A stretch of 41,822 bases of DNA from Escherichia phage vB-Eco-KMB41. Below the pieces are notes generated by a model. That model was not told the DNA's origin, made no database searches, and saw only the letters and a list, made by a program, of their open reading frames with translations. The position numbers and the translations under genes are program-made. Positions 2,821 through 24,204 of the stretch are shown one piece after another. The stretch is taken from sequence record OR539216.1; one strand, given 5' to 3'. Each line of letters opens with the position of its first letter. The stretch's first letter is position 1.

Positions 2821-3624
2821 TGCTGCCGGGTTGACCGTGACCGTACAGACGGCGGAGGTAACGGTGTTCGGCGCGACGGTGTTCGAACTGGTGGCAATAC
2901 AGCGGTATTGACCAGCGTCCCCGGTCGCCGGGCTGGCAACGTTCAGCGTTGCGGCGGTAGCCCCGGAGATGTTCGTCCAGGAGGTCCCGCCGTTCGTGGA
3001 CTTCTGCCACTGGTAGGAGTACGGCGCGAGGCCCGTCGTGGAGTTTACCGCGATCGACAAGCTGGCTGCGGTCCCCACGGTCCAGGTGGCGGTCGCCGGG
3101 AGGTTGGTCGAGAGAGCGATCGCTGGCTTGGTACGCTCGCGCAAGCTCTCGGCGGTCTGGCCCGCGCTGTCGGTTACGCGGCAAAAATAATCGCCGTTGT
3201 TCCCTGCTGCGTACCCGGTGATCGTATACGTCGGGGAGTTCGTCCCCACTGGGTTGTCGGTGCTGGATGCCCGGCGAAACCATGCGTAAGTATACGGCGG
3301 GACGCCACCACTCACGGCGACCGTGAACGTCTTGTTACTTCCCAGTGGGATATAACTCGCCCCGGCGTCGTTGGCGTTGTTACCCGGTAAATTTTGGGTA
3401 AACACGATCGGCGGGACCAGCGCCGGATCCAGTTCGATGTAAAACATTTTCGTGGGGTCCAGGTTGGACGGTTCACTGTCCAGCCAGATCACATCCTTTT
3501 GATGGACCTTGCTCGGATCAAGGATTCGCGTCACTTTCCAGCCCATCAGGTCGGCGCGGCGGTAACGATGCCAATAAGCCATAATTTTGTCCTCGTGAAA
3601 TTGTGCGGTATACTGCCCCGGCAT
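2818..3624 (-). CDS. Ig-like domain protein (two tandem Ig-like repeats)
   Basis: Two ~80-aa repeats sharing PPYTYAW/APYSYQW and GDYFC/GQYRC motifs typical of Ig-like folds; N-terminal ~90 aa unrelated. Alternative start at Met15 (about 3582) has a better SD (GAGGA). Confidence 0.75.
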   Translation of the reverse strand: MPGQYTAQFHEDKIMAYWHRYRRADLMGWKVTRILDPSKVHQKDVIWLDSEPSNLDPTKMFYIELDPALVPPIVFTQNLPGNNANDAGASYIPLGSNKTFTVAVSGGVPPYTYAWFRRASSTDNPVGTNSPTYTITGYAAGNNGDYFCRVTDSAGQTAESLRERTKPAIALSTNLPATATWTVGTAASLSIAVNSTTGLAPYSYQWQKSTNGGTSWTNISGATAATLNVASPATGDAGQYRCIATSSNTVAPNTVTSAVCTVTVNPAA

Positions 3625-3651
3625 TGTAGATCATCTCTGGCGTTAAAACGA

Positions 3652-3683
3652 AAGGAGCCGCTTTTTAAGCGGCCCTTTTTTTT
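3652..3683. terminator. Terminator hairpin (GCCGCTT-loop-AAGCGGC) flanked by A- and T-runs
   Basis: Stem-loop with T9 on plus side and T-rich tract on minus side; lies between two minus-strand genes. Confidence 0.6.
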
Positions 3684-3783
3684 AGAGTACCATCGACACG
3701 CCGAAACCGATTAAAGCCCACAGCGCGGCGCTGGCTGCGATTACGCCCCATATAACGTATTTACTTCCGCGTAAGTCAGTCAT
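3682..3783 (-). CDS. small hydrophobic peptide (33 aa, single predicted TM helix)
   Basis: Unlisted small ORF MTDLRGSKYVIWGVIAASAALWALIGFGVSMVL; its ATG overlaps the TGA of 3780..4172 (ATGA coupling) and it ends at the terminator. Confidence 0.35.
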   Translation of the reverse strand: MTDLRGSKYVIWGVIAASAALWALIGFGVSMVL

Positions 3784-4172
3784 GATATTTTCCCCTCTCT
3801 TTTGAATTTACCCAGGCGCCCGCGAATGGATGCCTTGCTCTTGTTCAACCACTGCCCGACCTGCTCGTGGGTCAGGTCTGCCCGCGTTACCTCATGAAGC
3901 CCGGTAGCCTGAGCGATATCAAGAACGTCGTCCGGCGTCAGTTCATCCACCCAGAAGCGGATCAGCTTCTTGTCCTCGTCAGTGGTCCACCAGCTATAGG
4001 TCCGGCGGTGAGCCAGTGAAACGCCCAGCTTGGACGCTCGGACTTGCATCTGGCGGAAGTTACGCCCGATCAGCTTCGCCAGGTCATGCGCTGGCATCGT
4101 CCCCGCCAGCTTCTCCAGTTCTAAATCTTCCTGCCCGGTCCATCCGATCCGGGTTGCGTTCTTTTTAGCCAC
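3780..4172 (-). CDS. hypothetical protein (130 aa)
   Basis: ORF with GTG start preceded by AAGGAGG SD; no recognisable motif. Confidence 0.65.
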   Translation of the reverse strand: MAKKNATRIGWTGQEDLELEKLAGTMPAHDLAKLIGRNFRQMQVRASKLGVSLAHRRTYSWWTTDEDKKLIRFWVDELTPDDVLDIAQATGLHEVTRADLTHEQVGQWLNKSKASIRGRLGKFKREGKIS

Positions 4173-4443
4173 GTTTGCCTCCTTTGAGGTGCTTCCGGTT
4201 TTTGGTGTCGGCGATCGCGTTCTTGAGATCGTTCTTTCCGCCTTTGGTCCCCGGAACGACGCGCCAGTGATGCGGGTCCGGGTTGTTCAGGTACATCTCG
4301 CCGTCCGGCGTCTCGATCGATATGTCCGCGATCGCCTCCTTGCCGAACACGCGGGAGACTGCGCTGATCATGCCGTCCAGTTCGGCGGCTTGCGCCGCCT
4401 CCCATAACTCCCGGCGCGTTGCCTTAATCGGCCCCGTAGCCAT
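4165..4443 (-). CDS. hypothetical protein (92 aa)
   Basis: ORF in co-directional array with short overlaps; basic C-terminus. Confidence 0.6.
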   Translation of the reverse strand: MATGPIKATRRELWEAAQAAELDGMISAVSRVFGKEAIADISIETPDGEMYLNNPDPHHWRVVPGTKGGKNDLKNAIADTKNRKHLKGGKRG

Positions 4444-4651
4444 AAGCCCCCCGGATAAGCTCGCGGGCGTCGCTCTCTGCCTGAGCCGCTTCGCGCTTTA
4501 AAGCTGCTGTAGCGTGAGGCCCTGCCGCGTACATCTTGAGACGGTTGCGGAGGATCATCGCCACCTCGATCAGAATGTGCGCCTGTTTGAGTAACATCCA
4601 GTTAATCACGACCGCTTTATTTGTTTTGGTCTGAATCAGTGCCTTTTCCAT
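4424..4651 (-). CDS. hypothetical protein (75 aa)
   Basis: ORF with AAGGAG SD 6 nt upstream of ATG. Confidence 0.55.
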   Translation of the reverse strand: MEKALIQTKTNKAVVINWMLLKQAHILIEVAMILRNRLKMYAAGPHATAALKREAAQAESDARELIRGAYGYGAD

Positions 4652-4652
4652 C

Positions 4653-4976
4653 TTAAGCTCCTTTGCTTTCCAGTACGTCGATCACTTTGGTGTAGAAAAC
4701 TTCTTTCGCGCTGAGGGCGGTCAGGCACTCCTCGCGGGTCCGCTTCTTCTCAATACACCAGTAGCAACGGCACAAAGCGGCGCGGAAATAATCCAGTTGC
4801 GGGTCGCTCTTATAATGCGCCTCCAGCTTCTGATTAAGCTCGGCCTCCATCATGGCCTTAAGACCTTTCAGTGACGCCTTACTGGTGCGGATCAGGGTGG
4901 CGTATTTGTGGGCGAAGGCGCGGACCTCTTTCGCTTCCGCCGGGGTGTATTTGATTGTGTTCGGTACTGTAGCCAT
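4653..4976 (-). CDS. hypothetical protein (107 aa)
   Basis: Start set at MATVPN (GAGGA SD upstream); the longer ORF form to 5039 would run through the promoter-like element. Confidence 0.65.
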   Translation of the reverse strand: MATVPNTIKYTPAEAKEVRAFAHKYATLIRTSKASLKGLKAMMEAELNQKLEAHYKSDPQLDYFRAALCRCYWCIEKKRTREECLTALSAKEVFYTKVIDVLESKGA

Positions 4977-5031
4977 TTCGTTGTCCTCGTGTTGGTGTGA
5001 AAAGATAATAACAAAGGATAAGTGAAAGCGC

Positions 5032-5050
5032 TTTAGCAAAAAGTGCTATT
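5032..5050 (-). promoter_or_regulatory. Palindromic box site 2 (TAGCA-AAAAG-TGCTA)
   Basis: Same oriented box, followed about 22 bp downstream (minus sense) by TATTAT, then SD and ATG of 4653..4976. Confidence 0.45.
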
Positions 5051-5054
5051 TGAT

Positions 5055-5076
5055 AAAAAGGCCCCGGAGGGCCTTG
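5055..5076 (-). terminator. Rho-independent terminator (minus sense: GGCCC-TCCG-GGGCC + TTTTT)
   Basis: GC hairpin followed by T5 on the minus strand, right after the stop of 5079..5819. Confidence 0.6.
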
Positions 5077-5078
5077 TG

Positions 5079-5819
5079 TCAGAATGGGGAGTTTTCGATG
5101 AATACCGCGACGGCGAAGCCTTCGGGAGTGGCGGAGCGGATGTTCTTCGTTCGTGTGCTGGATCCTCCCAGCTTCGACCAGCCCGGATTATCCTTCACCG
5201 CCGGGACGCTCTGCGCTGCTGGCATACGGAAGCCGCCACCGCACCAGATCCCCGTCTGCTTCGGGTAAGCATCGCGCGGAGGGTAGATCTCCGGGTATAG
5301 CGTATGCTGGTGGTTCTCCGGCAAGTAGCCGCCGAAGTGGTAAGGGTGGAACCAGTGATCGCAAGGTCGCCACATCGTCGAGAGCCGGGAGATCTTCGGA
5401 TTCTCCAGCATCCAGGGGACCGGGTTCCGGTCCTCATAGTCGCCCTTTTCGTACCCGGCGAACATTGCCACCTGCTCCACCATGCGGGCCAGGTTAACGG
5501 CCTTCTGTTGGAAGCGCGGATCCTTCTTGCGCTTCGCTTCCCACCATCGCGCCCCGGTACAAGTAAGATCCGTACACTCGGCGAAGGATGCAACGAAGAT
5601 CACGCCGGGGCCTACCTCGTCGGCAATGCGAAGCGCTTCCGCTTCCGTGTTCTCTGCGTCGAACATCCGGCCCACACGGATCAGGTTCGGCTCGTTCGGG
5701 TCTGGGTGGATCCCTGGCTCGTGCTGCCCGTCATACATCCAGCATTCGACGCCAGCCTCCAGCCACTTGTCCACCATGATCCGGGTCAGGTTAAAAAGGA
5801 AAATTGCCTTATGCTTCAC
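5079..5819 (-). CDS. hypothetical protein (246 aa), possible nucleic-acid-modifying enzyme
   Basis: Long well-behaved ORF upstream of the terminator; contains ECTDLTC and ENPK stretches but no canonical C5-methyltransferase motif I, so function is left open. Confidence 0.7.
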   Translation of the reverse strand: MKHKAIFLFNLTRIMVDKWLEAGVECWMYDGQHEPGIHPDPNEPNLIRVGRMFDAENTEAEALRIADEVGPGVIFVASFAECTDLTCTGARWWEAKRKKDPRFQQKAVNLARMVEQVAMFAGYEKGDYEDRNPVPWMLENPKISRLSTMWRPCDHWFHPYHFGGYLPENHQHTLYPEIYPPRDAYPKQTGIWCGGGFRMPAAQSVPAVKDNPGWSKLGGSSTRTKNIRSATPEGFAVAVFIENSPF

Positions 5820-6045
5820 GGTTCAGATCCTTCTCGTATTCGTCGGCGTCACGCTTGATCAGCGCGTCCCACTGGTCCATATGGACCGGGTTAAAATCCT
5901 GCTCAAAAGAGAGATCGAGATCCCCGGCGAACAGGAGGCCCTCGGCCTCCGTGTCCACGAGGCCCCGGCGTAGTAGCTCGGCGGCGACCTTCTCCTGGAA
6001 GATGGCCCAGCGGCTATTAGTGTGACCGTCGTTATACTTCATCAC
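5809..6045 (-). CDS. hypothetical acidic protein (78 aa)
   Basis: ORF overlapping both neighbours by a few nt. Confidence 0.55.
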   Translation of the reverse strand: MMKYNDGHTNSRWAIFQEKVAAELLRRGLVDTEAEGLLFAGDLDLSFEQDFNPVHMDQWDALIKRDADEYEKDLNREA

Positions 6046-6626
6046 TAAATCCTCGCTGGCATGATGATCAGCGTTGCGTTGCCGTCCGGCGTTTCGAAGT
6101 CCACGCGGATCGGGTTGGTGTTGCCGTTAAAGCTGAGTTTCGCGAACGGCTTCTTAATGCCGAACTTTTTCCCCAGCTTCTCGATCATTCCGAGGTAAGG
6201 GGTCGCGACGCCGATCACTTCGACGGCCTTCGAGTTCTGGCGGGCCTCGTTCAGCAGACGATCAACGTCGGGATAGTTGGCGTCCACAATGTCCACGGTC
6301 CCCACGGCTACGCGGGCTTTCTTGTGGTCAACGTCGGCGAGGTCCTTCGGCTTGTCTGCCGGAATGTCCAGCCAGTACACGATCCCCGCCTCGGTGTCGA
6401 TCACGGCGGAATAGATCCGCCCAGTCGGTGGCGCGGAGATGTTCAGGATAATCCCCTCCGCTGGAGCCTCGACCAGCTTATGGTCGCTTTCGAGGCAAAC
6501 ATGACCGTTAGACGTGCGGATCCGGCTACCGATGAAGTGGATCGCGTTCAGGTAGTAGCGGACCTCGTTCTGGGCCTTCGTCAGTTGGTGAGCGCGTAAG
6601 GCGCTTACAGGTGCATAAATAATCAT
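6045..6626 (-). CDS. hypothetical protein (193 aa)
   Basis: ORF in replication-associated array; no recognisable motif. Confidence 0.65.
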   Translation of the reverse strand: MIIYAPVSALRAHQLTKAQNEVRYYLNAIHFIGSRIRTSNGHVCLESDHKLVEAPAEGIILNISAPPTGRIYSAVIDTEAGIVYWLDIPADKPKDLADVDHKKARVAVGTVDIVDANYPDVDRLLNEARQNSKAVEVIGVATPYLGMIEKLGKKFGIKKPFAKLSFNGNTNPIRVDFETPDGNATLIIMPARI

Positions 6627-6640
6627 CTCTGGGTCCTCTG

Positions 6641-7282
6641 TTAAATCATGCTTTTGCCGTCGAACATCATTTCCGCCTGGGTCAGATATTCAGTCTTGAT
6701 CGCGCCGCGCTTCTTCGGCTTGATAACGAACATCACAGACGGCTTGCTGTTCTTCTTGCCCGCGACTCCGGTCCCGGCCTTCACGAACGCCACGCGCCCG
6801 GAGTTCTCGCCGTCGCTGGTGATGTGAATAACCAGGCTTGCCGCGTCCAGTGCCTTTTTGAACCACGCCGTAGAGGCGTCGGAGTTCAGGAGAAACACGG
6901 TCGTAACGTCGCGATCCTTCGCTTGCTGGATGGCCTTCACGATCCACGGAAGCGGCTCGGCGTATGGCGGATTACACCAGGCCAGACCGCCCTCGGCTCC
7001 CCACTCCACGCCATCCTTGAGGGCGTCCGTTTTCTCGTCCAGGTAGACGTCACAGAGGGCGTTTTCCTTCTCCGCCGCCACGTCGATCCCGAACTGCCCG
7101 AAGCGCTTCGCGGCCCAGTCGAACAGCCAGCGCGGCGTCTGCCACTTCTGGCGGATAGCGTCCGGCGTGGTGGTCTTGTTGAAGCGGCGACCGCTAACAG
7201 TGGTCACGTCTGCCGCTGCGCGTTCCGCCTCGGTCATGCCGTCCACATGGTCGATCGTGCTGGTGTCTTTCTCGTCTTTCAT
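6641..7282 (-). CDS. DNA N6-adenine methyltransferase (phage Dam type)
   Basis: Contains the catalytic (N/D)PPY motif in context WCNPPYAEP, characteristic of amino-methyltransferases. Confidence 0.8.
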   Translation of the reverse strand: MKDEKDTSTIDHVDGMTEAERAAADVTTVSGRRFNKTTTPDAIRQKWQTPRWLFDWAAKRFGQFGIDVAAEKENALCDVYLDEKTDALKDGVEWGAEGGLAWCNPPYAEPLPWIVKAIQQAKDRDVTTVFLLNSDASTAWFKKALDAASLVIHITSDGENSGRVAFVKAGTGVAGKKNSKPSVMFVIKPKKRGAIKTEYLTQAEMMFDGKSMI

Positions 7283-7338
7283 CTGCTGCCCTTCTGTTGT
7301 TGGTGGTTATTAAAGATAATTGATTAACTGTTTAGTGT

Positions 7339-7357
7339 TTTAACAAAAAGTGCTATT
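7339..7357 (-). promoter_or_regulatory. Palindromic box site 3 (TAACA-AAAAG-TGCTA, one mismatch)
   Basis: Degenerate copy of the oriented box upstream of the methylase gene. Confidence 0.35.
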
Positions 7358-7412
7358 TATGGTTTCTCACGTTTCCCTGTAGCAACATTAGCGCCGCTGG
7401 TATCGACGCTTT

Positions 7413-7438
7413 AGCCCCCGCGCCGGGGCTTTTTTTTT
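7413..7438 (+). terminator. Plus-sense intrinsic terminator-like hairpin (AGCCCC-loop-GGGGCT + T8) inside a minus-strand operon
   Basis: 6-bp GC stem followed by T8 on the plus strand only; abuts the primase stop codon. Confidence 0.45.
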
Positions 7439-8255
7439 ACCCGAACGCGCCAGCCAGATCTCCCCCTATGCAAGCCCTCCCCGTCCTGTCGTAGCCGTAC
7501 AGGAAAACCTCGTCCGGGTCAGTGTAAACGAACCGGATCTCCCGATCGCCGTCGTAGATCGCCGAAGCCTGGACGGCGTTCATAGGCCGGAACGTCAGCC
7601 AGACCTCCGCCTCCCCTCGCGCCGCCACGTTCACGGCATGAGCCGGATCCGCCACGAGATACACCGGAGCGTCCGGCGCTGGGTGGATCAGTCCGACCGC
7701 GCCCCACGTTGGCCCGCCAGCGGCAAACACCACGGACCTGTCGGAGCCGATCTTCGCAACGTTGCACCACGGCCCCAGGGATCCCCCCAGTGGACGAGCG
7801 CATGGAACATACAGGAAGCCGTCCCGCATCGCGCCTTTAGCCATGACTCGCTCGACGTCCTCCGGGGAGAGTTCCCAGTCCTGCGCGGGCTTGTCCTGCT
7901 GCCGGGCATACTTGCGGGCCTCTTTGACGATCGTCTCCCGCTTCTCCGGGGTGAGTCCGCCTATCCAGTCGCCCAGGTCGTTGATCGCCTCGTTGAACGG
8001 CTGCGATCGGCTGGTCATAAACCAAAACATGCCATCACGAGCGCCACCGCACGAGCCGGAACAGTACCCGAAGCCCTCGGCCTTTTTCGTCTGCTGCTTA
8101 TGGCCCCAGCGAAAGCGATCGGTCCCGCCACAGATCGGGCATGGCTGGTGATTGCCGTTAAACGCCTTGCGGTCCCATCCACAGAGATCGAGGAGCGCCT
8201 GTTCCCATTTGCCGGGCATCGCCGCGAGAACGTCCTCTTTTTTATAAATTGCCAT
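7437..8255 (-). CDS. DNA primase (zinc-binding)
   Basis: N-terminal CPICGG...DRFRW zinc-ribbon typical of phage/plasmid primases plus a second Cys cluster; divergent from the helicase gene. Confidence 0.7.
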   Translation of the reverse strand: MAIYKKEDVLAAMPGKWEQALLDLCGWDRKAFNGNHQPCPICGGTDRFRWGHKQQTKKAEGFGYCSGSCGGARDGMFWFMTSRSQPFNEAINDLGDWIGGLTPEKRETIVKEARKYARQQDKPAQDWELSPEDVERVMAKGAMRDGFLYVPCARPLGGSLGPWCNVAKIGSDRSVVFAAGGPTWGAVGLIHPAPDAPVYLVADPAHAVNVAARGEAEVWLTFRPMNAVQASAIYDGDREIRFVYTDPDEVFLYGYDRTGRACIGGDLAGAFG

Positions 8256-13228: not shown

Positions 13229-13669
13229 ATGAAACAATGCGCCATCTGTCAGACGGTCAAGCCTCTGGAGGACTTCCACAGGAACAAGCGGACGAAGGAC
13301 GGGCGGGATTGCCGTTGTAAGGTCTGCAAGGGGCAAAAGTACCGCGAGTATTACCACGGCGATCCATCCCGGAAGGAGAGGATCATCGCGAACGTTAAGA
13401 CATATCAGGCGGGGCCGGGACGCGAGAAGGCGAACGCCACAAAGTCCCACTATCAGGAGCGCCACCCTAAGAAGCGAAAGGCCCATAATCTGGTCCGTAA
13501 TGCTCTGAGGCGCGGAGAACTCCACAGGGGGCCGTGTGAGGTGTGCGGAGCCGACAAGGTAGTGGGCCACCATGACGACTATGATCGCCCGTTAGCGGTC
13601 CGCTGGTTGTGCGAGAGGCATCATAAAGAGTGGCATCTGGTCCACGGTGAAGCGCTTAACCCGGATTGA
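13229..13669 (+). CDS. HNH endonuclease
   Basis: N-terminal CxxC...CxxC zinc finger and C-terminal HNH core (CEVCG...HHDDYDRP...WLCERHHKEWH). Confidence 0.8.
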   Translation: MKQCAICQTVKPLEDFHRNKRTKDGRDCRCKVCKGQKYREYYHGDPSRKERIIANVKTYQAGPGREKANATKSHYQERHPKKRKAHNLVRNALRRGELHRGPCEVCGADKVVGHHDDYDRPLAVRWLCERHHKEWHLVHGEALNPD

Positions 13670-13716: not shown

Positions 13717-13950
13717 ATGAAGGAGCCTAACATGGCAGAATTAAAGGCCGTTTGCCTCGTGAAGCAAGTCCGAGAAGCGAAAGGCATCCAGCAGAAAGAT
13801 TTAGCGGAGCGAATCGGCATGATCCCGCATCAGTTGAGCCGCTACGAAAACGGGCACGAATTGCCATCTGTAACTAACCTCTGCCGGATCGCGAAGGCGC
13901 TCGACGTCTCGATCGCGGATCTGATTGAAACAGGAGTAAACCACGATTAA
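13717..13950 (+). CDS. helix-turn-helix transcriptional regulator (XRE/Cro-like)
   Basis: HTH signature QKDLAERIGMIPHQLSRYENG and LCRIAKALDVSIADL; alternative start at 13732 has AAGGAG SD. Confidence 0.75.
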   Translation: MKEPNMAELKAVCLVKQVREAKGIQQKDLAERIGMIPHQLSRYENGHELPSVTNLCRIAKALDVSIADLIETGVNHD

Positions 13951-13982
13951 CGAATTGTTAAACTCGTATCGAGGTACAAAGA

Positions 13983-14010
13983 GAAGGGGCCAATTAAGGC
14001 CCCTTTTTTT
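13983..14010. terminator. Bidirectional rho-independent terminator (GGGGCC-AATTAA-GGCCCC + T7)
   Basis: Perfect GC stem with T-run on plus side and T-rich tract on minus side, between the convergent HTH and tailspike genes. Confidence 0.8.
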
Positions 14011-16219
14011 ATGCTGGCGTCCTGAATTGGATCGGTTTCGCCGCTGCGAGTTGCGTCCCCGCCGGGGTCGCCGTCACGATAGCGTCCGCGATATCGATCG
14101 TTACCGGGGCCGTGGAGTTGCTCGGCGGCGTCTGGTACGGTCCGCGAGTGATGCGGGTCGAGAGGTTCGCGCCACCAGCGCCAGCGCCGGGGATGATGAT
14201 CCTCGTGCCAGGGGAGAGCGGGTTCCCGAACAGCCACGGGCGGGAGGTTTCGTTCGCGATCGGGGTCACGTTACAGATCAGCTTTTTGTCGCCGACTGCG
14301 GTCGCCGCGATCTTGAAATTATCCGTCGCCGGGATGTACGCCCCGGAGGCCGTCACGGTGAAGATCTTCCCATCCTCGCGCACAATCAGATCGCCCGCCA
14401 TAAACTCCTTACCAGTCGGGAACGCGTTACCATCCCACGCTCCGCTCGATCCCTTGTTGATGTAGGTCCGGTTGGAGTTGGTCATGATGGCCCCGATGCC
14501 TCCCGCGATGCCCTGGGGAGGATATGGGGTGGCGATCACGTTGGAGCCGATGCTCTCAATGTCGGAGTAGGAACACTTACTCCACGCCTGATCGCCGTAG
14601 CCGTTCACGTCGATCGCGTTCACGTTGATCATACGGAGGCGAGAGAGGCCACGCGTCACGAAGCCGTCCGAGGTGGTCCCGCCGCTGGAGTCATCGCCGA
14701 CCGCATCGAACGAGCGGCAAGAGATATTCGACATTTCCAGCAGGGACGCCACGCCGAACAGGGAGAGCGTATAACAGTCGATGTTTTCGAATACCATCCG
14801 GTTTTCGAAGCCATTCCCCGCCGCCACGCCAGCGTAAACGCGTCCGTATTTGGTGTGGACGTTACGGACCGTCATATCAAAGCAAGGGTTAGACGGTGCG
14901 CCAGCAGTCACGCCCCACTCCAGCATAACCATGCGGAGAGAGTGGACGTCGGTCGATCCGGTTGCCACTGGCTCGCCGCTCACGCCGTCGATCGTGATGC
15001 GTTTGCAGCCATAACAGACCACTCCCCCCACGGTCAGGCCGGAGCCGACGCCGTAGCCCATATCCGGGTTTACATCGACATTGGTCACGGTACAGTCGCG
15101 CGCGACTTCCAGGTGGACACATTGGCGGCAACGGACGGCGGTCACGTTGGTGATCGTAACGTTCTTCGCGTATTGGCTGTCCGGGATATCCCAGCCATAC
15201 GGGCCTTGTCCGGCGATACCGATCCCGATGCCCCACGAAGGGTTAGCGGAGCCGATGGTGTCCAGTTGGATCCCGTCAATCAAACAGCCTTCATCGTAGT
15301 GCTTCTGGACCACGTTAAGCTCGATCCCGTCGCCGTCCATTTTGTAGAACGAAAGGTTACGATAAACGCCGCGCGTTACTGGCTCCCCGGTCCCCTGCTG
15401 CAAGATGCCGTAAAGGCCATTTTTGAACTCGCACTCCGTGACCTCGATCGTCCCGGTTTTCGGGTTAGCCTGGAGAACAATCGATCCCACTTTGGACGCG
15501 GTAGGCTTGCCGTCAAACAGGCAGTCACGGATCCGCACATCACCGCCCCAGAAGCGAACGCGCAAATTATTGATCGTCGCGCCCTTGAGGATTGAGCCAT
15601 CCAGGAAAAAGTCCGCCGTCCCTTTCCACGTACCGCCCATGATCAGGATGTTCTCGGCGGTCACATTGCCGTCGAGGGTCCCGGTCCAGCCCACCGCGTT
15701 AACCGCGAGTTTCTGGGCCTCTGCCGTGTCAAACATCGTCTGAATCGCTGCGGACACGCTGGTGAATGGCGCTTTACCCACGAACTGGAAAGGCGTCAGC
15801 CAGCCCTGGATCGACTCCTTCACGTTGCCGTAAGTGGTCCCGACGTACTCCCACCCAGTCGGCGAGGTGAGAAGGTTCCACATCTGCACAGGGTCATACT
15901 TGAACAGGTTCGCAAAATAGAACTGCTCGACGTCGTTCCGGTCTAAAACCTTCATGGACGATTCGATCTTGGTGATCAGCTTGACTACTTGACCGTTCCA
16001 GACCGGATAGCCGGAGACGTTGGTCCTGATCGGCTGAGGGATCGGCGTCAGAGTTCCGTCCTCGTCCTCGACAAAGACCTGAGTCTGGTTAGCCGGGTTT
16101 AATGGGTCGGTGTCCTTCACGCCGATATAAATTTTCCCATCCACCAGCGCCGCGAAACGGTCCAGGCGGAGGAAAGGCGTCGAAGGCATACCAATATCAG
16201 CGTATACGTCGCGGGCCAT
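14009..16219 (-). CDS. tailspike protein (P22 gp9-like N-terminal head-binding domain + distinct beta-helix receptor-binding body)
   Basis: N-terminus matches P22 tailspike as recalled (DGKIYIGVKDTDPLNPANQ...YDP); remainder is Gly/Asn/Thr-rich like parallel beta-helix enzymes. Start set at second ATG (GGAGA SD); ORF track start is 16231. Confidence 0.85.
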   Translation of the reverse strand: MARDVYADIGMPSTPFLRLDRFAALVDGKIYIGVKDTDPLNPANQTQVFVEDEDGTLTPIPQPIRTNVSGYPVWNGQVVKLITKIESSMKVLDRNDVEQFYFANLFKYDPVQMWNLLTSPTGWEYVGTTYGNVKESIQGWLTPFQFVGKAPFTSVSAAIQTMFDTAEAQKLAVNAVGWTGTLDGNVTAENILIMGGTWKGTADFFLDGSILKGATINNLRVRFWGGDVRIRDCLFDGKPTASKVGSIVLQANPKTGTIEVTECEFKNGLYGILQQGTGEPVTRGVYRNLSFYKMDGDGIELNVVQKHYDEGCLIDGIQLDTIGSANPSWGIGIGIAGQGPYGWDIPDSQYAKNVTITNVTAVRCRQCVHLEVARDCTVTNVDVNPDMGYGVGSGLTVGGVVCYGCKRITIDGVSGEPVATGSTDVHSLRMVMLEWGVTAGAPSNPCFDMTVRNVHTKYGRVYAGVAAGNGFENRMVFENIDCYTLSLFGVASLLEMSNISCRSFDAVGDDSSGGTTSDGFVTRGLSRLRMINVNAIDVNGYGDQAWSKCSYSDIESIGSNVIATPYPPQGIAGGIGAIMTNSNRTYINKGSSGAWDGNAFPTGKEFMAGDLIVREDGKIFTVTASGAYIPATDNFKIAATAVGDKKLICNVTPIANETSRPWLFGNPLSPGTRIIIPGAGAGGANLSTRITRGPYQTPPSNSTAPVTIDIADAIVTATPAGTQLAAAKPIQFRTPA

Positions 16220-16231
16220 TGTGATCTCCAT

Positions 16232-16258
16232 GAGAAAGGGGGCTTATCGCCCCCGTTG
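16232..16258 (-). promoter_or_regulatory. Intergenic hairpin GGGGGC-loop-GCCCCC upstream of tailspike
   Basis: GC stem-loop between the ejection-protein stop and tailspike start, followed (minus sense) by TTTCTC. Confidence 0.35.
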
Positions 16259-19200
16259 TTATTGTTGCTGCTGCTGTTCGGTTGCTGCCGCCCTGCCACC
16301 TGCGCCGGAAAAGAATCCGACGATCCCGGCTCGGTTAACGGCTGCTTTCTCCTCCGGGCTGAATGCCTCATACAAGGCCCGCCACTCCGGGGAGTTCGCC
16401 GCCGCTTGCTCGGCCTCTCGGACGAACGTCCGGCCCGCTGGGGTCAGCTTCCCGGAACTCTGCGCGGCTGCGGCTTGCATAAGTTTGGAGAAGTCCGGGG
16501 ACGAAAGCAAGTTGTCCGCCAGTACCGAACGAGGCACACGAGCGCCCCGCGCCGCCTGAGCCGCCGACAATGCCGCGTTACCTGCCGGACCTGCCGCCAG
16601 ATAAGCCGCCGTGTGCTTCGCCAGCCAGCCCCCCGCGCCGTACAGCTTGGACAAGACGCCGCCCGCGTTCGGGTCGTCGAAGCGCTTCACGAAGTCGGAG
16701 ATCGATCCGGTCGTGGTGGTAAAGCGTTTCGCCCGGTCGATGCCATTCGCCACGCGGTAGATCTGCATGAGGCGCACACGCTGATCGCGCGGTAGGTGCT
16801 TCATGACATTGCCTAACGTCCCGTTTGCCTGGGCGGTCTTGTACCAGTCCACGAAGCCGGGGATCGCGAAGGTATCGCGGGCGCTACGGTTCCCCAGGGT
16901 CCGCTCCAGCGCGTTAGCCACTACGTCGCCTTTGAGGCTCTCCGGGGTTGCAGCCATCAGGCGGTCCCAGTCCTTCGCGCTGCCGCCTTTCTTGCCCAGG
17001 TTTAAGATCGCGTTCTGCACTTTCCCGGTGATCGAGTCGGTGAGGTTCTTTCCGAGTGCGTCCTGGGCGATCGTCTCCAGATCCTTACGGCGTTTAACGA
17101 GTTGTTTCGCCACGTTCCAGTCGTCCGCCGCGCCGTACTGAGCCGCGACTTTCTCCTGGTCGTCAGTCAGGCGGGCGTAAAGCTGTTTAAGTGCGCCCGT
17201 CTCCTCGTCCTTGAACGGACCAGATTTTTTGTTGAGCGCCTGGCCCACCTGCTTACGGAGCGTGTCGATCCGCGAGTAGGTCGGAATGGTCGCTACGTCC
17301 TGATCCGGGAGGCCCGTCGCCGGGTCCACCTTGCCAGGCTTCGGAGCCATCCAGTCGAGCGCCTTACGTTCTGCGCTGGAGAGATACGCCTCGCCGCCTA
17401 ACTCGTCAGCCTTCGCCGTCAGATAGTCCACGGTGCTGTCCGGCCTTACTTGCGCGTTACGCGGGATCTTCGCCGCGATCGCGTTATAAGCCTTCTCCGC
17501 CTCGTCGCCCAGACCGTCGATCACCGCACGAGTGCGGGCCGTGAACGCCTGATCAATGGTCTGCGCGTTCATGCTTGACATGCTATCGATCAGCTCGTCC
17601 GCCTTCTCGCCTAAGCGGGAGATCCCGTTTAACTGCTGCGTCTCCAGCGCGGAGCCTTTACGGCTCACAAGCTGCTGGATCGTGCTGCGGAAATTCGTGT
17701 CTCGCGCGTAAGCCGCCGGGGTCAGTTGATCCTCCAGCCCCAGATCGCGGGCCGTCTTGATCAGCTTCTTGTCCACGTCCGCCATGTTCGCCAGGTCGAT
17801 CGCGTCGTCAGAAGCGCGGAGGGCCTCCCCGTTCGCGCCCTGGACGTTACGGTCTGGCGTCAGTCGGAACTTGCTCGCGTCACGAGCCACAGCGTCGGAA
17901 ATGCCCGCCTCGGTCGCCTGGGTGGATCGGGTTGCGTCTGCTGCGGCGTCAGCGGCCCCACCTGCGGCCCCCTCCGGCGCTCTGAGCGCGTTCCACAGTT
18001 TACCCGCGCCACCGATAACAGCACGACCGATCGCCTCTCCTGCGGGCGCTAGTGCGATATTCGTCAGCGTCTCCTCCGGGTCGCCTCGACCAGCGGCCAC
18101 CGCGCCGGGGACGGCACGAGCCGCCGGGGCTGCGATCCAGTTCTGGGTCATATCGGCGAGACGGGTCGCGAAGCTGGTCGCGTCCGGCGCTTCACGGACC
18201 AGTCCGAGGAGTTCGGTCGCCGCCTGAGCCTTACGCGGGCCAGGCAGTGGCGCGAGCATATCCCCGATCAGGGTCCCGATCTGCGCGTATTTGTCCGTGG
18301 GAGCCAGACCAGGGATCCCCCCAGGCGTGATAGTCGGCGCTTGGGTGTTCTGGTCCACCAGCCCGACGCCCTTCCCGGCATCGGTCACGGCTTGGGAGAT
18401 CATGTTCGCCAGCGAGATCGGCGTGTTCAGCAGGTCGATCCCCGTCTGAGCCACGCCGCGAGCGCCCTGATCCAGTGAATGGAGGACGGTCTGGCCTAAC
18501 TGTTCCCAGTTTCGGGCGGCTTCTTCGTTTGGATCGGTTTGTCCGGGCTGATTAGCTCCGCTCTGGACTCCGTTACTGTTCGGCGCTGCCGCCCCTTGTG
18601 CGCCATCAGATCCCGCTTGATTAGGTGCATTGCCAGCGGCGACGGCTGCGACTTGTTGATCGGCTCCGGGTGCTCCGGCTCCGTCTGCGGCTGCTGCTGG
18701 GGGTTGGTAGTCCCCGAACTGGTCGAAAACATTACCGCCAGCGCTCGGAGATCGTGCGCTGGTTGCGTATTGAGTAGGTTCGCCGCTGCCATCGCTGCCA
18801 GCGCCTCGCCCAGTCCATTGATTAAACCGATCATCCACATATTGACGCCCCTCCGGGCCAGGGGTTGCCTGTCCCGCCAGTTGTTTGTCTACATTGCCGG
18901 GGCCGTCATGGTAAGCCTGGAGGGCGGTCCCCCAGTCTCCATAGCGCTGATACATGCGGGAAAGGTACTGCGCCCCCGCGTCCGCTTGCATTGCTGGATC
19001 CTGCGCCAGCGCGTCCGGGTCGTAGCCCATTTCGCGGGCCGTGTCCGGCATCACTTGCGTAAGTCCCATTGCGCCTTTTTTCGATCGCGCCGCTGGGTTG
19101 CCGCTGGACTCTTTTCCCATTAACTGGGTCATGAGTCCGGCGGGGATCCCCCATTTAGCCCCGGCGCTCTCTACCACATCAGCATAACCCGAACCGGACG

Positions 19201-19285
19201 ATCCGGGCTGAGTTGGGACCTGATTAGGGAGCGCCGTCGCATTTTCCGGCATATTCTGATCGAACTGGTCAAAGATGTTAGCCAT
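16259..19285 (-). CDS. ejection/internal virion protein with N-terminal lytic transglycosylase (SLT) domain (1008 aa)
   Basis: SLT signature near N-terminus (LMGKESSGNPAA...GAMGLTQVMPDTA...AQYLSRMYQRYGDW), long Gly/Ala/Gln-rich linker, large C-terminal body; occupies the position of P22 gp16. Confidence 0.75.
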   Translation of the reverse strand: MANIFDQFDQNMPENATALPNQVPTQPGSSGSGYADVVESAGAKWGIPAGLMTQLMGKESSGNPAARSKKGAMGLTQVMPDTAREMGYDPDALAQDPAMQADAGAQYLSRMYQRYGDWGTALQAYHDGPGNVDKQLAGQATPGPEGRQYVDDRFNQWTGRGAGSDGSGEPTQYATSARSPSAGGNVFDQFGDYQPPAAAADGAGAPGADQQVAAVAAGNAPNQAGSDGAQGAAAPNSNGVQSGANQPGQTDPNEEAARNWEQLGQTVLHSLDQGARGVAQTGIDLLNTPISLANMISQAVTDAGKGVGLVDQNTQAPTITPGGIPGLAPTDKYAQIGTLIGDMLAPLPGPRKAQAATELLGLVREAPDATSFATRLADMTQNWIAAPAARAVPGAVAAGRGDPEETLTNIALAPAGEAIGRAVIGGAGKLWNALRAPEGAAGGAADAAADATRSTQATEAGISDAVARDASKFRLTPDRNVQGANGEALRASDDAIDLANMADVDKKLIKTARDLGLEDQLTPAAYARDTNFRSTIQQLVSRKGSALETQQLNGISRLGEKADELIDSMSSMNAQTIDQAFTARTRAVIDGLGDEAEKAYNAIAAKIPRNAQVRPDSTVDYLTAKADELGGEAYLSSAERKALDWMAPKPGKVDPATGLPDQDVATIPTYSRIDTLRKQVGQALNKKSGPFKDEETGALKQLYARLTDDQEKVAAQYGAADDWNVAKQLVKRRKDLETIAQDALGKNLTDSITGKVQNAILNLGKKGGSAKDWDRLMAATPESLKGDVVANALERTLGNRSARDTFAIPGFVDWYKTAQANGTLGNVMKHLPRDQRVRLMQIYRVANGIDRAKRFTTTTGSISDFVKRFDDPNAGGVLSKLYGAGGWLAKHTAAYLAAGPAGNAALSAAQAARGARVPRSVLADNLLSSPDFSKLMQAAAAQSSGKLTPAGRTFVREAEQAAANSPEWRALYEAFSPEEKAAVNRAGIVGFFSGAGGRAAATEQQQQQ

Positions 19286-22300: not shown

Positions 22301-23752
22301 TCAGGTCACACGGACACGCGCCCGCGAGAGAGTCGCCGGGGTTGCGCCTACGGTGCGAATTTTGAAGCCAATAGCGGACCGGACTCGGCCCACGACGCGT
22401 AAGATAACGTTCTGGAGCCAGTGGAAAGGCTTGTTATAGTCGATGCTTTTCTCCTGCCCGTACACGATCCCGTCCTCGGTAGCGGAGAGCCAGATCCGGC
22501 TCGCCACGGAGTCGCCCCCGGTGCTGGCGTCCATGCGGAAGTCAGCAAGGATCGCATTCTCGGCCCACAGCAAAGGCGTATACAGGACGATCTCCTGGTC
22601 CTCGCCATATTGAGCGCTGGTCGTGTGGTCAAGCTGGCCCAGCCACGGCTCCACCTTGTCGCCACAGGTGATCACCTTGCCCTCGTTCACGTAGTCGATC
22701 GCGCGGTGCGGCTTGATGCCGTTAATACCCGTTTTGATGTACGACCAGACCGGGACGCCCTGCGCCTGGCTAACCGGGTGATCGTAAACCAGCGTGTAGT
22801 CCGGGAGGTGGACAATAAGCAATTTGTGCGTTTCAAAGGTCAGTGACTCCAGTCGGACGTCCGCCAGTTCCTCCACGGTGTAACCCATGAGGATCTTCTT
22901 AACTTCCACGCTCGCCAGTTCGGACCACGATCCGCCGCCGGGGTTCATGAGGCCGATCGAGAGGTCGCCGGAGAACGGGGAGACGAGGAACGCGAAGGAC
23001 TCCAGATACTCGCACACGCTTTCACGCCCGATCGTCCCGGCGTCGATGGTGTAGGAGGGCTGGTTCGCGTAGACGTTCTGATCGTCACCAGTCAGGCCGA
23101 AGAACTCGATCGAGGCGCTACCGAAGCAAACGACATAATCACGCCACGAGCGGATCGCCACGATGCCGTCCGGCATGGACTCGGCACGATACGCCGGGGC
23201 CGTCTTGTCCGGGTGCGTCTCGTCGTCCAGGTCGGAGATCCAAAAGGTGTCCGTCCCCTTCGTGGAGAAAATAAAGCGCTGGCGGAGGTGGCACACGTCG
23301 TTAATGTCGCCCCAGTTGTATTGTGCGATCGGGTCGTCGTCCGACGTGGGCCAGTTGGAGAACGCCGTCCGGCTCCCGTCGTAGCCGATCATGATCATCC
23401 TGTTCTCGGTCACGATCGCCACGCGGTCCCGGCTATGCGCCATCGGGGTACGGTCTACGCCCGTGATATCCGTCACCACTTCGCCGTCCAGATAAAGGGA
23501 CTGGCCCATGACGCGGTAAGTCTGGCCTTTGACCGTGTTCCAGTCAGCGCCACGGCTTACGCCCGCCACGTCGTCCCCGCGCTTCGTAATGCCCGGCATG
23601 ATGCGCATATAGCCGTTGCCGCCCTTGATGTTGCGGCTCACGGCGAGCATGTTCTCCGGTAGCCGCGTTGACCAGTCGAGCGTGTTGGAGCGACGTCCGT
23701 CGCCATAGAGCAAGGGGATCGTGATCTCCTGCCCGCGTTCTGGGTTCCTCAT
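22301..23752 (-). CDS. tail hub protein (P22 gp10-like)
   Basis: Multiple blocks match P22 gp10 as recalled (PGITKR, GVSRG, SNWP, DLDDETHPD, YRAESMPDGI, WRDYVVCFGS, ITCGDK, LSATEDGI.YG.E, IGFK.R). Confidence 0.9.
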   Translation of the reverse strand: MRNPERGQEITIPLLYGDGRRSNTLDWSTRLPENMLAVSRNIKGGNGYMRIMPGITKRGDDVAGVSRGADWNTVKGQTYRVMGQSLYLDGEVVTDITGVDRTPMAHSRDRVAIVTENRMIMIGYDGSRTAFSNWPTSDDDPIAQYNWGDINDVCHLRQRFIFSTKGTDTFWISDLDDETHPDKTAPAYRAESMPDGIVAIRSWRDYVVCFGSASIEFFGLTGDDQNVYANQPSYTIDAGTIGRESVCEYLESFAFLVSPFSGDLSIGLMNPGGGSWSELASVEVKKILMGYTVEELADVRLESLTFETHKLLIVHLPDYTLVYDHPVSQAQGVPVWSYIKTGINGIKPHRAIDYVNEGKVITCGDKVEPWLGQLDHTTSAQYGEDQEIVLYTPLLWAENAILADFRMDASTGGDSVASRIWLSATEDGIVYGQEKSIDYNKPFHWLQNVILRVVGRVRSAIGFKIRTVGATPATLSRARVRVT

Positions 23753-24204
23753 TTCGCCGTCCCGTCATAGTAGAATCGATCTTGTGGGAAATATGGGTTA
23801 TTCCCCTGCCCGGTTGGCATATCGTTACGCTGTTTGAGGCTCGGCACTTCGTAGAACTGGATCTTAATGATGTCCCATTGTTCCTTTAGTACCGCGTTCA
23901 TTTCCGGCGTTAAATCGCGCTGCATATCCAGGAGGATCCGCTGGGCCAGCTTGAGGGCGATCCCCTCTTTGGTCCACAGGTCCAGCCCGGAGTCCTCGTT
24001 CCCGTCCGGTACGCCGTCGGCGTTGGTCGTGAAGATATAGGGCAAGGCTACGCCGTCTTTGATCACCGTAGCCATTAAGCCCTCCAGATCCTCCAGCGCG
24101 TCGTTGATTTGCTGGGGATCTGGCATCATGAGAACAGCAGACGACGCCAGCCCGCCACGGCGTAACGCCAGGTTAACGATCTGGATCTTCTGCAAAGTTG
24201 CCAT
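23749..24204 (-). CDS. tail adaptor protein (P22 gp4-like)
   Basis: N-terminal block (VNLALRRGGLASSAVL...INDALEDLEGLMA) and C-terminal MPTGQGN match P22 gp4 as recalled. Confidence 0.85.
   Translation of the reverse strand: MATLQKIQIVNLALRRGGLASSAVLMMPDPQQINDALEDLEGLMATVIKDGVALPYIFTTNADGVPDGNEDSGLDLWTKEGIALKLAQRILLDMQRDLTPEMNAVLKEQWDIIKIQFYEVPSLKQRNDMPTGQGNNPYFPQDRFYYDGTAK

Follow-up and report, generated by a model that had tools for sequence, protein, structure and literature searches.

The single tailspike of Escherichia phage vB-Eco-KMB41 (record OR539216.1) is a two-module protein, in which a P22-type head-binding domain is joined to a right-handed beta-helix body belonging to the colanidase tailspike family. 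The window, that is the whole stretch of 41,822 nucleotides that was analysed, holds a Murrayvirus-like genome with 90% nucleotide identity to phage ST231. Taken as a whole, the explanation that a P22-type docking domain carries a colanidase-family beta-helix as the sole tailspike of a lytic podophage of the Murrayvirus group is held to be very likely. According to the proposed mechanism, the N-terminal ~113 residues would anchor the spike, by analogy a trimer, to the gp4/gp10 tail hub, which is encoded 6-8 kb upstream, and residues ~114-736 would act as a depolymerase that binds and cleaves the colanic-acid exopolysaccharide of the host. Such cleavage may open a path for the virion across the slime layer; once the outer membrane is reached, the needle and the ejection proteins would take over. 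The architecture itself is ordinary and has already been described and annotated.

The gene, its position and its docking domain

The sequence-only reading placed a tailspike ORF of 736 codons at 14009-16219. This ORF is confirmed and lies on the minus strand, which that reading had not given (Table 1). The first ATG of the same ORF is found at 16231 and would extend the gene to 14009..16231, giving a protein of 740 aa with four additional residues. The start at 16219 is preferred because of the spacing of the Shine-Dalgarno sequence, because it brings the residue numbers into register with P22 gp9 (10-112 to 10-112), and because the same start is used in the annotations of IME_EC2 and Sortsne and in a 97%-identical protein (P0001). 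The start at 16231, 5' of which no Shine-Dalgarno-like sequence was found, is judged less likely. The ATGGAG-N6-ATG motif is kept in ST231, IME_EC2 and Sortsne; the ST231 gene is annotated from the upstream ATG.

Table 1. Positions of the tailspike gene, its modules, its flanking signals and the hub genes in the window
Feature	Coordinates	Strand	Remarks
Tailspike CDS	14009..16219	-	736 aa + stop, uninterrupted ORF
P22-type head-binding (tail-hub docking) domain, aa 9-111	15887..16195	-	PF09008
Junction/neck, aa 112-145	15785..15886	-	short helices; low pLDDT at aa 127-130 in the model
Colanidase-family receptor-binding/depolymerase body, aa 146-736	14012..15784	-	right-handed parallel beta-helix + C-terminal domain
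Most conserved beta-helix core, aa 270-416	14972..15412	-	candidate active site; stretch also common to host WcaM
Shine-Dalgarno GGAG	16229-16226	-	6 nt 5' of ATG 16219; direct reading
GC-rich hairpin (6 bp, 5-nt loop), then TTTCTC	16238..16254	-	between ejection-protein and tailspike genes; upstream boundary of the cassette
Hairpin + T-run directly after the tailspike stop codon	13984..14005	-	downstream boundary of the cassette
P22 gp10-type tail hub protein	22301..23752	-	inferred docking partner; PF11134, E=4e-137
P22 gp4-type tail adaptor	23749..24204	-	second inferred docking partner; PF11650, E=4e-23

The genes for P22-type portal, coat, gp4, gp10, gp7, gp20-like and needle proteins are all present in the window and make up a complete P22-type virion module. 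The tailspike gene closes this module, occupying the place that gene 9 has in P22, and is located between the gene for an SLT-bearing ejection protein and a convergent XRE/SSB module; the same arrangement is observed in ST231, IME_EC2 and sortsyn. When both modules of the protein were used as tblastn queries, only the self-match was obtained, and neither a second tailspike nor a second head-binding domain was found elsewhere in the window.

The first ~120 residues had been ascribed to a P22 head-binding domain. The domain itself was recovered, and its boundary lies slightly earlier, at aa ~113. The Pfam profile PF09008 (Head_binding), which is 113 positions long, matches aa 9-111 through its positions 10-112; the E-value is 2.1e-32, and the score of 112.2 bits exceeds the cut-off of 24. 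In the sequence search, PDB chains of the P22 and Sf6 tailspike N-domains were found with E=1e-21 to 8e-30, and the identity of the head-binding domain amounts to 47.5% with P22 and 54.3% with Sf6 (7sg7, deposited as 'Gene 14 protein'). The AlphaFold2 model, which is that of a monomer, is of moderate confidence in this domain (pLDDT 62-87, and below 50 at aa 1-24). Foldseek comparison of the model with solved head-binding domains gave a TM-score of 0.79 for 1lkt_A and 0.68-0.70 for 7sg7/8tvr (target-normalised) at 44-55% identity, and the domain is thus predicted to share the fold of 1LKT and of the in situ structures 8TVR/7SG7. According to their entry titles, the in situ structures 8tvr and 8eb7 contain gp9-N bound to gp10/gp4. 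By analogy with P22, the tailspike encoded in the window would dock onto the gp4/gp10 hub and would form a trimer.

The body and its conserved core

In the PDB sequence search, the match to P22 stops at aa 112-113, and the match to phi92 gp150 starts at aa 114. The alignment of the body begins at aa 117 with Bonnellvirus proteins and at aa 145 with those of the phiWec-type ~150-kb phages (the ~1015-aa form). The crystallised colanidase phi92 gp150 (6E0V) aligns from aa 114 to 734 with its residues 27-622 (E=1.2e-83), and PHROG 6117, 'colanic acid degradation', is matched with E=1e-238. PF27800 is precomputed on all homologues, from which its assignment to the body is taken; in the copy of Pfam used, which lacked PF27800, the body gave a sub-threshold Beta_helix match (E=0.015). 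The body is therefore a member of the colanidase tailspike family (phi92 gp150 / NST1 CAE; PHROG 6117; PF27800), which gives an identity to the different receptor-binding body that the sequence-only reading had proposed.

The beta-helix-like character suggested earlier from the composition of the body was borne out by structure prediction, a check that had been suggested for this part of the protein. The mean pLDDT of the AlphaFold2 model is 83, with most of the body at 85-98, and regular short strands extend across aa 172-565. The best PDB match of the model in Foldseek is again the gp150 colanidase (6e0v_A; E=1e-37, target-normalised TM 0.69), the global rmsd of 18 A being a matter of domain placement in the monomer model. 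Other right-handed beta-helix tailspikes were matched as well. Within the body, conservation is highest in the beta-helix core. In an alignment of 31 sequences, reaching down to 29% identity, D297, E300 and E371 are invariant, and conservation reaches 90% or more at D347, D411 and E416; D297, E300, D347, E371 and D411 are also found in gp150. Judging from this pattern of conservation, D297, E300 and E371 may be regarded as candidate catalytic residues.

The likely substrate and the competing readings

Colanic acid is predicted to be the most likely substrate of the body, because NST1 and gp150, both characterised colanidases, bracket it in the tree. In this small neighbour-joining tree, which is midpoint-rooted and carries no support values, NST1 and its clade form the sister group of the window clade, and gp150 is located across the root. 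The body shares 49.4% of its residues with NST1 and 32.5% with gp150; between the two enzymes the figure is 30.4%. NST1 is described as a well-characterised colanidase (PMC4179555), and phi92 gp150 is reported to hydrolyse colanic acid (2025 study, as cited in PMC13450770), the reported cut being that of the beta-1,4 Glc-Fuc bond.

Among the alternatives, the one that survives best is that the body has diverged and acts on another polysaccharide, so that the name colanidase would be right for the family and wrong for the substrate. The new target might be another enterobacterial capsule or exopolysaccharide, perhaps a related one, or colanic acid itself in a modified form with different acetylation or pyruvylation. 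We consider a shift of this kind unlikely. In its favour, the two assayed enzymes are only 49% and 32% identical to the body; against it, both of them degrade colanic acid despite a mutual identity of 30%. The C-terminal third diverges fastest among close relatives, so that specificity could have drifted there, but the conserved core is intact, including all of the invariant acidic residues, and is also common to WcaM of the colanic-acid gene cluster. The recorded hosts of phages with full-length homologues include Klebsiella, Kosakonia and Stutzerimonas besides E. coli and Salmonella; the closest cultured relatives, however, were isolated on E. coli K-12. This strain has neither an O-antigen nor a group capsule but is able to make colanic acid. 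If the substrate had nevertheless shifted, the fast-evolving C-terminal third, swapped intragenically after ~aa 330, would be the specificity determinant, and the tailspike alleles of Murrayvirus would form a natural series for the mapping of specificity in one depolymerase fold.

A spike that only binds, having kept the fold and lost catalysis, would recognise colanic acid and leave it uncleaved. The retention of all the family-invariant acidic residues, which are shared with gp150 and the NST1-type proteins, makes this very improbable.

For ST231 and IME_EC2, GenBank gives the gene the product name 'colanic acid biosynthesis protein (wcaM)'. On that reading it would be a moron coding for a biosynthetic protein. 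Partial similarity to WcaM does exist: TIGR04004 is matched with E=3e-19, and BLASTP with WcaM of K-12 gave E=1e-20 and 26% identity over 310 aa. The score of 69.2 bits, however, is far from the equivalog cut-off of 794.6 (TIGR04004 / NF007517), with only aa 215-414 aligned, and membership in WcaM was rejected on this comparison. The name also conflicts with the virion-docking domain on the protein, with the location of the gene, which is the last of the virion genes and corresponds in place to P22 gene 9, and with the full-length homology to a crystallised tailspike. A biosynthetic role is therefore extremely improbable. No literature treating WcaM together with a tailspike was found, and the paper on the tailspike-like WceF (PMC7949094) contains neither WcaM nor colanic acid.

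Finally, the view that the body is closely related to the P22 endorhamnosidase, which would make the protein a plain orthologue of P22 gp9 with O-antigen as its target, is almost certainly wrong, because every tailspike chain of P22 or Sf6 in the PDB aligns with aa ~9-113 only, those of P22 gp9 with aa 11-112; Pfam, which recovers PF09008, gives no match to the P22 tailspike body, and the Foldseek hits to full-length gp9 (E~1e-11 to 1e-12) are driven by the N-domain, with 13-15% identity, a TM-score of ~0.2 and only the generic right-handed beta-helix in common. The statement of the sequence-only reading that the remainder of the protein does not resemble the P22 enzyme thus holds, no close homology having been found.

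Module exchange and comparison with known systems

Domain swapping, which had been presumed typical of such proteins, is directly observed in this family. Among phages, the same body is found behind N-termini of the PF09008, PF03906, PF18668(+PF26208) or PF12571 type, and the identities of the N-terminal part and of the body are decoupled among homologues. Variability is greatest in the C-terminal third, where identity is 50-70% even between proteins whose N-termini agree at 94-97%. Within the genus, the tailspike gene forms a sharp island of divergence between conserved hairpins. It is an exchangeable cassette, which recombines either as a whole gene or intragenically after about aa 330. Both boundary hairpins are kept in four relatives; in Lumpael, the upstream one shows a compensatory stem/loop change, and the loop of the downstream one has changed from TTAATT to AATTAA. 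The downstream hairpin is probably a bidirectional terminator between the convergent genes, since T7 follows it on the + strand as well.

The tailspike would be the host-recognition determinant of the phage, and its body predicts colanic-acid-producing (mucoid) Enterobacteriaceae as the targets. Colanidases have been considered of practical interest for the removal of biofilm and slime and for synergy in phage cocktails (PMC4179555), and for the production of colanic-acid oligosaccharides (work cited in PMC13450770). The present assignment corrects the 'colanic acid biosynthesis protein WcaM' label, which has been propagated in GenBank on the nearest relatives, and the gene is a clear case of a tailspike cassette with a conserved hairpin at either end; beyond correct annotation, it matters little.

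The closest counterpart is ORF31 of ST231 (WAV88278.1; Murrayvirus), a tailspike identical in 96.9% of amino acids and 92.4% of nucleotides. The tailspikes of IME_EC2 and sortsyn have the same two-module architecture at ~67.5% amino acid identity, that of IME_EC2 diverging progressively after about aa 330. The name 'tailspike colanidase' is already in use for the proteins of Salmonella phage Lumpael (Murrayvirus) and of Escherichia phages Sortsne (Sortsnevirus) and Skarpretter (Skarprettervirus), which are likewise high-GC podophages of ~41-42 kb combining a PF09008-type N-terminus with a colanidase body. Their amino acid identity to the window tailspike is 38.8%, 49.3% and 57.8%, respectively. 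In Lumpael the whole gene, including the head-binding domain, is a different allele, and its flanks are ~90-96% identical at the nucleotide level.

The colanic-acid-degrading enzyme of phage NST1 (HM214492) is the closest assayed enzyme, with an identity of 46.8-49.4% and a body alignment from aa 117. On the side of NST1 and Bonnellvirus (J8-65, Lidtsur), the related clusters P0019, P0010 and P0012 have a PF03906 (T7 tail-fibre) N-terminus or no recognised N-terminal domain, and not PF09008. Homology to phi92 gp150 (6E0V/6E0W) extends across the entire body, and the fold is common to both; gp150, however, is a protein of a myophage whose baseplate is of the multi-fibre kind, and it lacks the P22 head-binding domain, and the window protein carries several small insertions relative to it (621 against 596 aligned residues). 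WcaM of E. coli shares the conserved beta-helix core and, in the BLASTP alignment, keeps D297, E300, E371 and D411, but it is a cellular protein in which neither the head-binding domain nor the C-terminal third is present. Another cellular protein, WceF of Pantoea stewartii, is a stewartan-cleaving enzyme that combines a tailspike fold with a head domain like that of P22 (PMC7949094). It matches the window protein weakly, over aa 19-128, and belongs to an exopolysaccharide cluster, not to a virion. With the tailspikes of P22 (gp9) and Sf6, the window protein shares the head-binding domain and the general plan of a docking domain followed by a beta-helix enzyme, and the genome encodes P22-type hub proteins; it differs from them in a body of another family and in its presumed substrate, an exopolysaccharide instead of the O-antigen.

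Domain architecture of the tailspike

The sequence-only reading had placed a tailspike ORF at 14009-16219; this ORF is real, far beyond chance, and lies on the minus strand. In the ORF listing it runs uninterrupted over 14009..16231, and 16219 is its second in-frame ATG, from which 736 aa are encoded. A GGAG lies 6 nt ahead of this ATG, and no Shine-Dalgarno-like sequence was found on direct reading upstream of the ATG at 16231. Counted from 16219, the numbering falls in the register of P22 gp9 (10-112 vs 10-112), and the equivalent start is used in the records of IME_EC2 and Sortsne and in P0001, a metagenomic protein of 736 aa that is 97% identical to the tailspike. Taken together, these features make the start at 16219 more credible than that at 16231.

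The proposed P22-like N-terminal head-binding domain was borne out. PF09008 (Head_binding) was matched at aa 9-111 (Pfam, E=2.1e-32, 112 bits vs a threshold of 24), with 47.5% identity to its P22 counterpart and 54.3% to that of Sf6 (7sg7, deposited as 'Gene 14 protein'). In the PDB sequence search, aa ~9-113 were the sole aligned stretch for every P22 and Sf6 tailspike chain, and the modelled N-domain matched 1LKT and the in-situ P22/Sf6 hub-tailspike complexes (TM 0.68-0.79). Profile score, fold and the presence of a cognate hub in the genome all agree with PF09008 membership. The N-terminal 'head domain' of WceF (6tgf) also weakly matched aa 19-128 (window 15836-16165, E=7e-5). This domain has been characterised as P22-like (PMC7949094), and since WceF is bacterial, the P22-type docking domain is found in non-virion cellular enzymes too.

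The body of the tailspike has the fold, and belongs to the family, of the colanidases. Aa 114-734 aligned end to end with gp150, the colanidase tailspike of phi92 (PDB 6E0V, E=1.2e-83), and PHROG 6117 'colanic acid degradation' matched the whole protein (E=1e-238). The AlphaFold2 model, built as a monomer from 31 homologues, reached a mean pLDDT of 83 (body mostly 85-98) and displayed short strands in the regular pattern of a right-handed beta-helix, with 6e0v_A as the top PDB fold match (E=1e-37, target-normalised TM 0.69), in line with the beta-helix-like composition noted in the sequence-only reading. All family-invariant acidic residues are retained, namely D297 and E300 in GDGIELNVV, E371 in CRQCVHLE, and D347, D411 and E416; the first five in sequence order, D297, E300, D347, E371 and D411, are shared with gp150. 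The body thus qualifies as a colanidase-family member on three counts: it is homologous throughout to a crystallised one, has the fold and keeps the invariant residues. The P22 endorhamnosidase as an identity for the body was rejected, as full-length P22 gp9 reached only 13-15% identity and TM ~0.2 in the fold search. Because this residual match is the common N-domain plus generic fold, the body is not a close homologue of that enzyme, in agreement with the sequence-only reading.

Colanic acid as the candidate substrate

In PMC13450770, Xu et al. (2025) are cited for the hydrolysis by gp150 of the beta-1,4 Glc-Fuc bond of colanic acid, and NST1 is termed a well-characterised colanidase (PMC4179555). 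The body of the window protein shares 49.4% identity with NST1 and 32.5% with gp150, against only 30.4% between these two enzymes. In a small, midpoint-rooted NJ tree of bodies, drawn with no support values, the clades of the window protein and NST1 are sisters, and gp150 lies across the root. Owing to this placement and these identities, the two assayed enzymes bracket the window body, which is the main argument that colanic acid is the probable substrate of the tailspike. A shifted specificity, governed by the fast-exchanging C-terminal part of the tailspike, is considered improbable. By analogy with P22 gp9, the tailspike would trimerise and sit on the tail hub; judging by the titles of entries 8TVR, 8EB7 and 7SG7, this domain type docks hub proteins in P22 and Sf6. 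Binding and cleavage of colanic acid would then bring the particle to the outer membrane.

The GenBank tailspikes of ST231 (ORF31) and IME_EC2 (IME_EC2_25) are annotated as 'colanic acid biosynthesis protein (wcaM)'. WcaM membership of the window tailspike was rejected, with a TIGR04004 score of 69 bits vs the equivalog cut-off of 795, and the name is therefore a mislabel. IME_EC2_22 is labelled 'baseplate wedge protein'; its homologue in the window matches HNH/EndoVII-type endonuclease PHROGs (E=3e-41). K-12 WcaM, from the host colanic-acid gene cluster, is nevertheless homologous to the core of the tailspike body (26% over 310 aa, E=1e-20) and keeps D297, E300, E371 and D411. The core homology and the kept invariant acidic residues suggest that WcaM itself may be a colanic-acid glycanase, parallel to WceF of the stewartan cluster (PMC7949094). 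In the literature searched, WcaM and tailspike were not named together in any paper.

The tailspike gene as an exchangeable cassette

Domain swapping, also proposed from the sequence, is evident at several levels. In the protein collection, the PF27800 body is preceded by PF09008, PF03906 (T7 tail-fibre N-terminus), PF18668 with or without PF26208, or PF12571, and some bodies have no recognised N-terminus; alignments of the window tailspike with Bonnellvirus proteins start at its aa 117, and those with proteins of phiWec-type ~150-kb phages at its aa 145. Identities of the N-terminus and the body are decoupled among homologues: P0002, P0003 and P0007 are 94-97% identical over aa 1-112 and just 50-70% over aa 521-736, P0004-P0006 share 52-54% in the N-domain and 61-69% in the body, and P0018-P0023 share 71-74% and ~45%, respectively. 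Within Murrayvirus, the gene is a divergence island. Compared with Lumpael, nucleotide identity is ~92% ahead of the start codon, ~65% from there on, and again 96% just past the stop; compared with IME_EC2, it is 84-91% up to about aa 170, 71-78% from there to about aa 320, and then declines to 50-69%, so that Megablast covers only the first 984 nt.

The island is bounded by two hairpins that flank the gene exactly. Both are kept in ST231, IME_EC2, Lumpael and Sortsne, although identity of the enclosed coding DNA can be as low as 45-70%, and stem/loop changes in Lumpael preserve pairing. The two probably act as terminators, in both directions in the case of the downstream one, and mark the edges of an exchangeable tailspike cassette; it may be speculated that their conserved flanks double as crossover sites. 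A small hypothetical ORF (198-285 nt) lies between the XRE gene and the tailspike terminator in IME_EC2, Lumpael and Sortsne. It seems to be missing from the window (region compared, 13951-14008), since the XRE-type ORF directly adjoins the terminator, as apparently also in ST231.

Coordinates of the tailspike region and of related features in other records
Feature	Record	Position	Strand	Remarks
Colanidase core common to WcaM	window	14972-15412		tailspike aa 270-416
Hairpin, start-codon side	window	16254-16238		GC-rich, T-rich tail
Hairpin, stop-codon side	window	14005-13984		GC-rich, T-rich tail
Ejection protein	window	16259-19285	-	1008 aa; N-terminal SLT lytic transglycosylase PF01464, aa 38-139, E=2e-23
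XRE-type ORF	window	13717-13950		
Homologue of IME_EC2_22	window	13229-13669		
ORF31	L001 (ST231)	6001-8223		
IME_EC2_25	L002 (IME_EC2)	3001-5241		
Small hypothetical ORF	L002 (IME_EC2)	5294-5578		
Small hypothetical ORF	L003 (Lumpael)	5437-5634		
Small hypothetical ORF	L004 (Sortsne)	5398-5643		
WcaM	L005 (E. coli K-12)	6506-7897		

Genome context and comparison with known phages

Over its first 25 kb, the window shares 90% nt identity with ST231, 86% with IME_EC2 (~86% across 90% of this stretch) and 87% with Lumpael, all Murrayvirus; phages of this type are ~41-42 kb high-GC podophages (PMC7552041). ST231 is the nearest of the records compared, and should the remainder of the genome show a similar level, its value of ~90% would point to a separate species. 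The tailspike gene ends a complete P22-type virion module comprising terminase, portal (PF16510), scaffold, coat (PF11651), the hub genes gp4 (PF11650) and gp10 (PF11134, E=4e-137), needle, gp7, a gp20-like translocase and the SLT-bearing ejection protein. Convergent with it is an early/replication block with the XRE regulator, HNH/EndoVII-like nuclease, SSB, Erf and exonuclease VIII. Neither a further head-binding domain nor another beta-helix body was found within the window, and the phage therefore has a single tailspike. The ejection protein holds the position of P22 gp16 but bears a peptidoglycan-cutting domain; it also contains long Ala/Gly/Gln-rich low-complexity stretches and a QQQQQ tail at the C-terminus.

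Both the observation and the interpretation of the sequence-only reading were correct, and they concern a feature of known type. The same architecture has been deposited as 'tailspike colanidase' in Lumpael, Skarpretter and Sortsne, and the closest deposited protein is 96.9% identical to the window tailspike, which is an ordinary, already catalogued type whose anatomy holds no surprise for a specialist.
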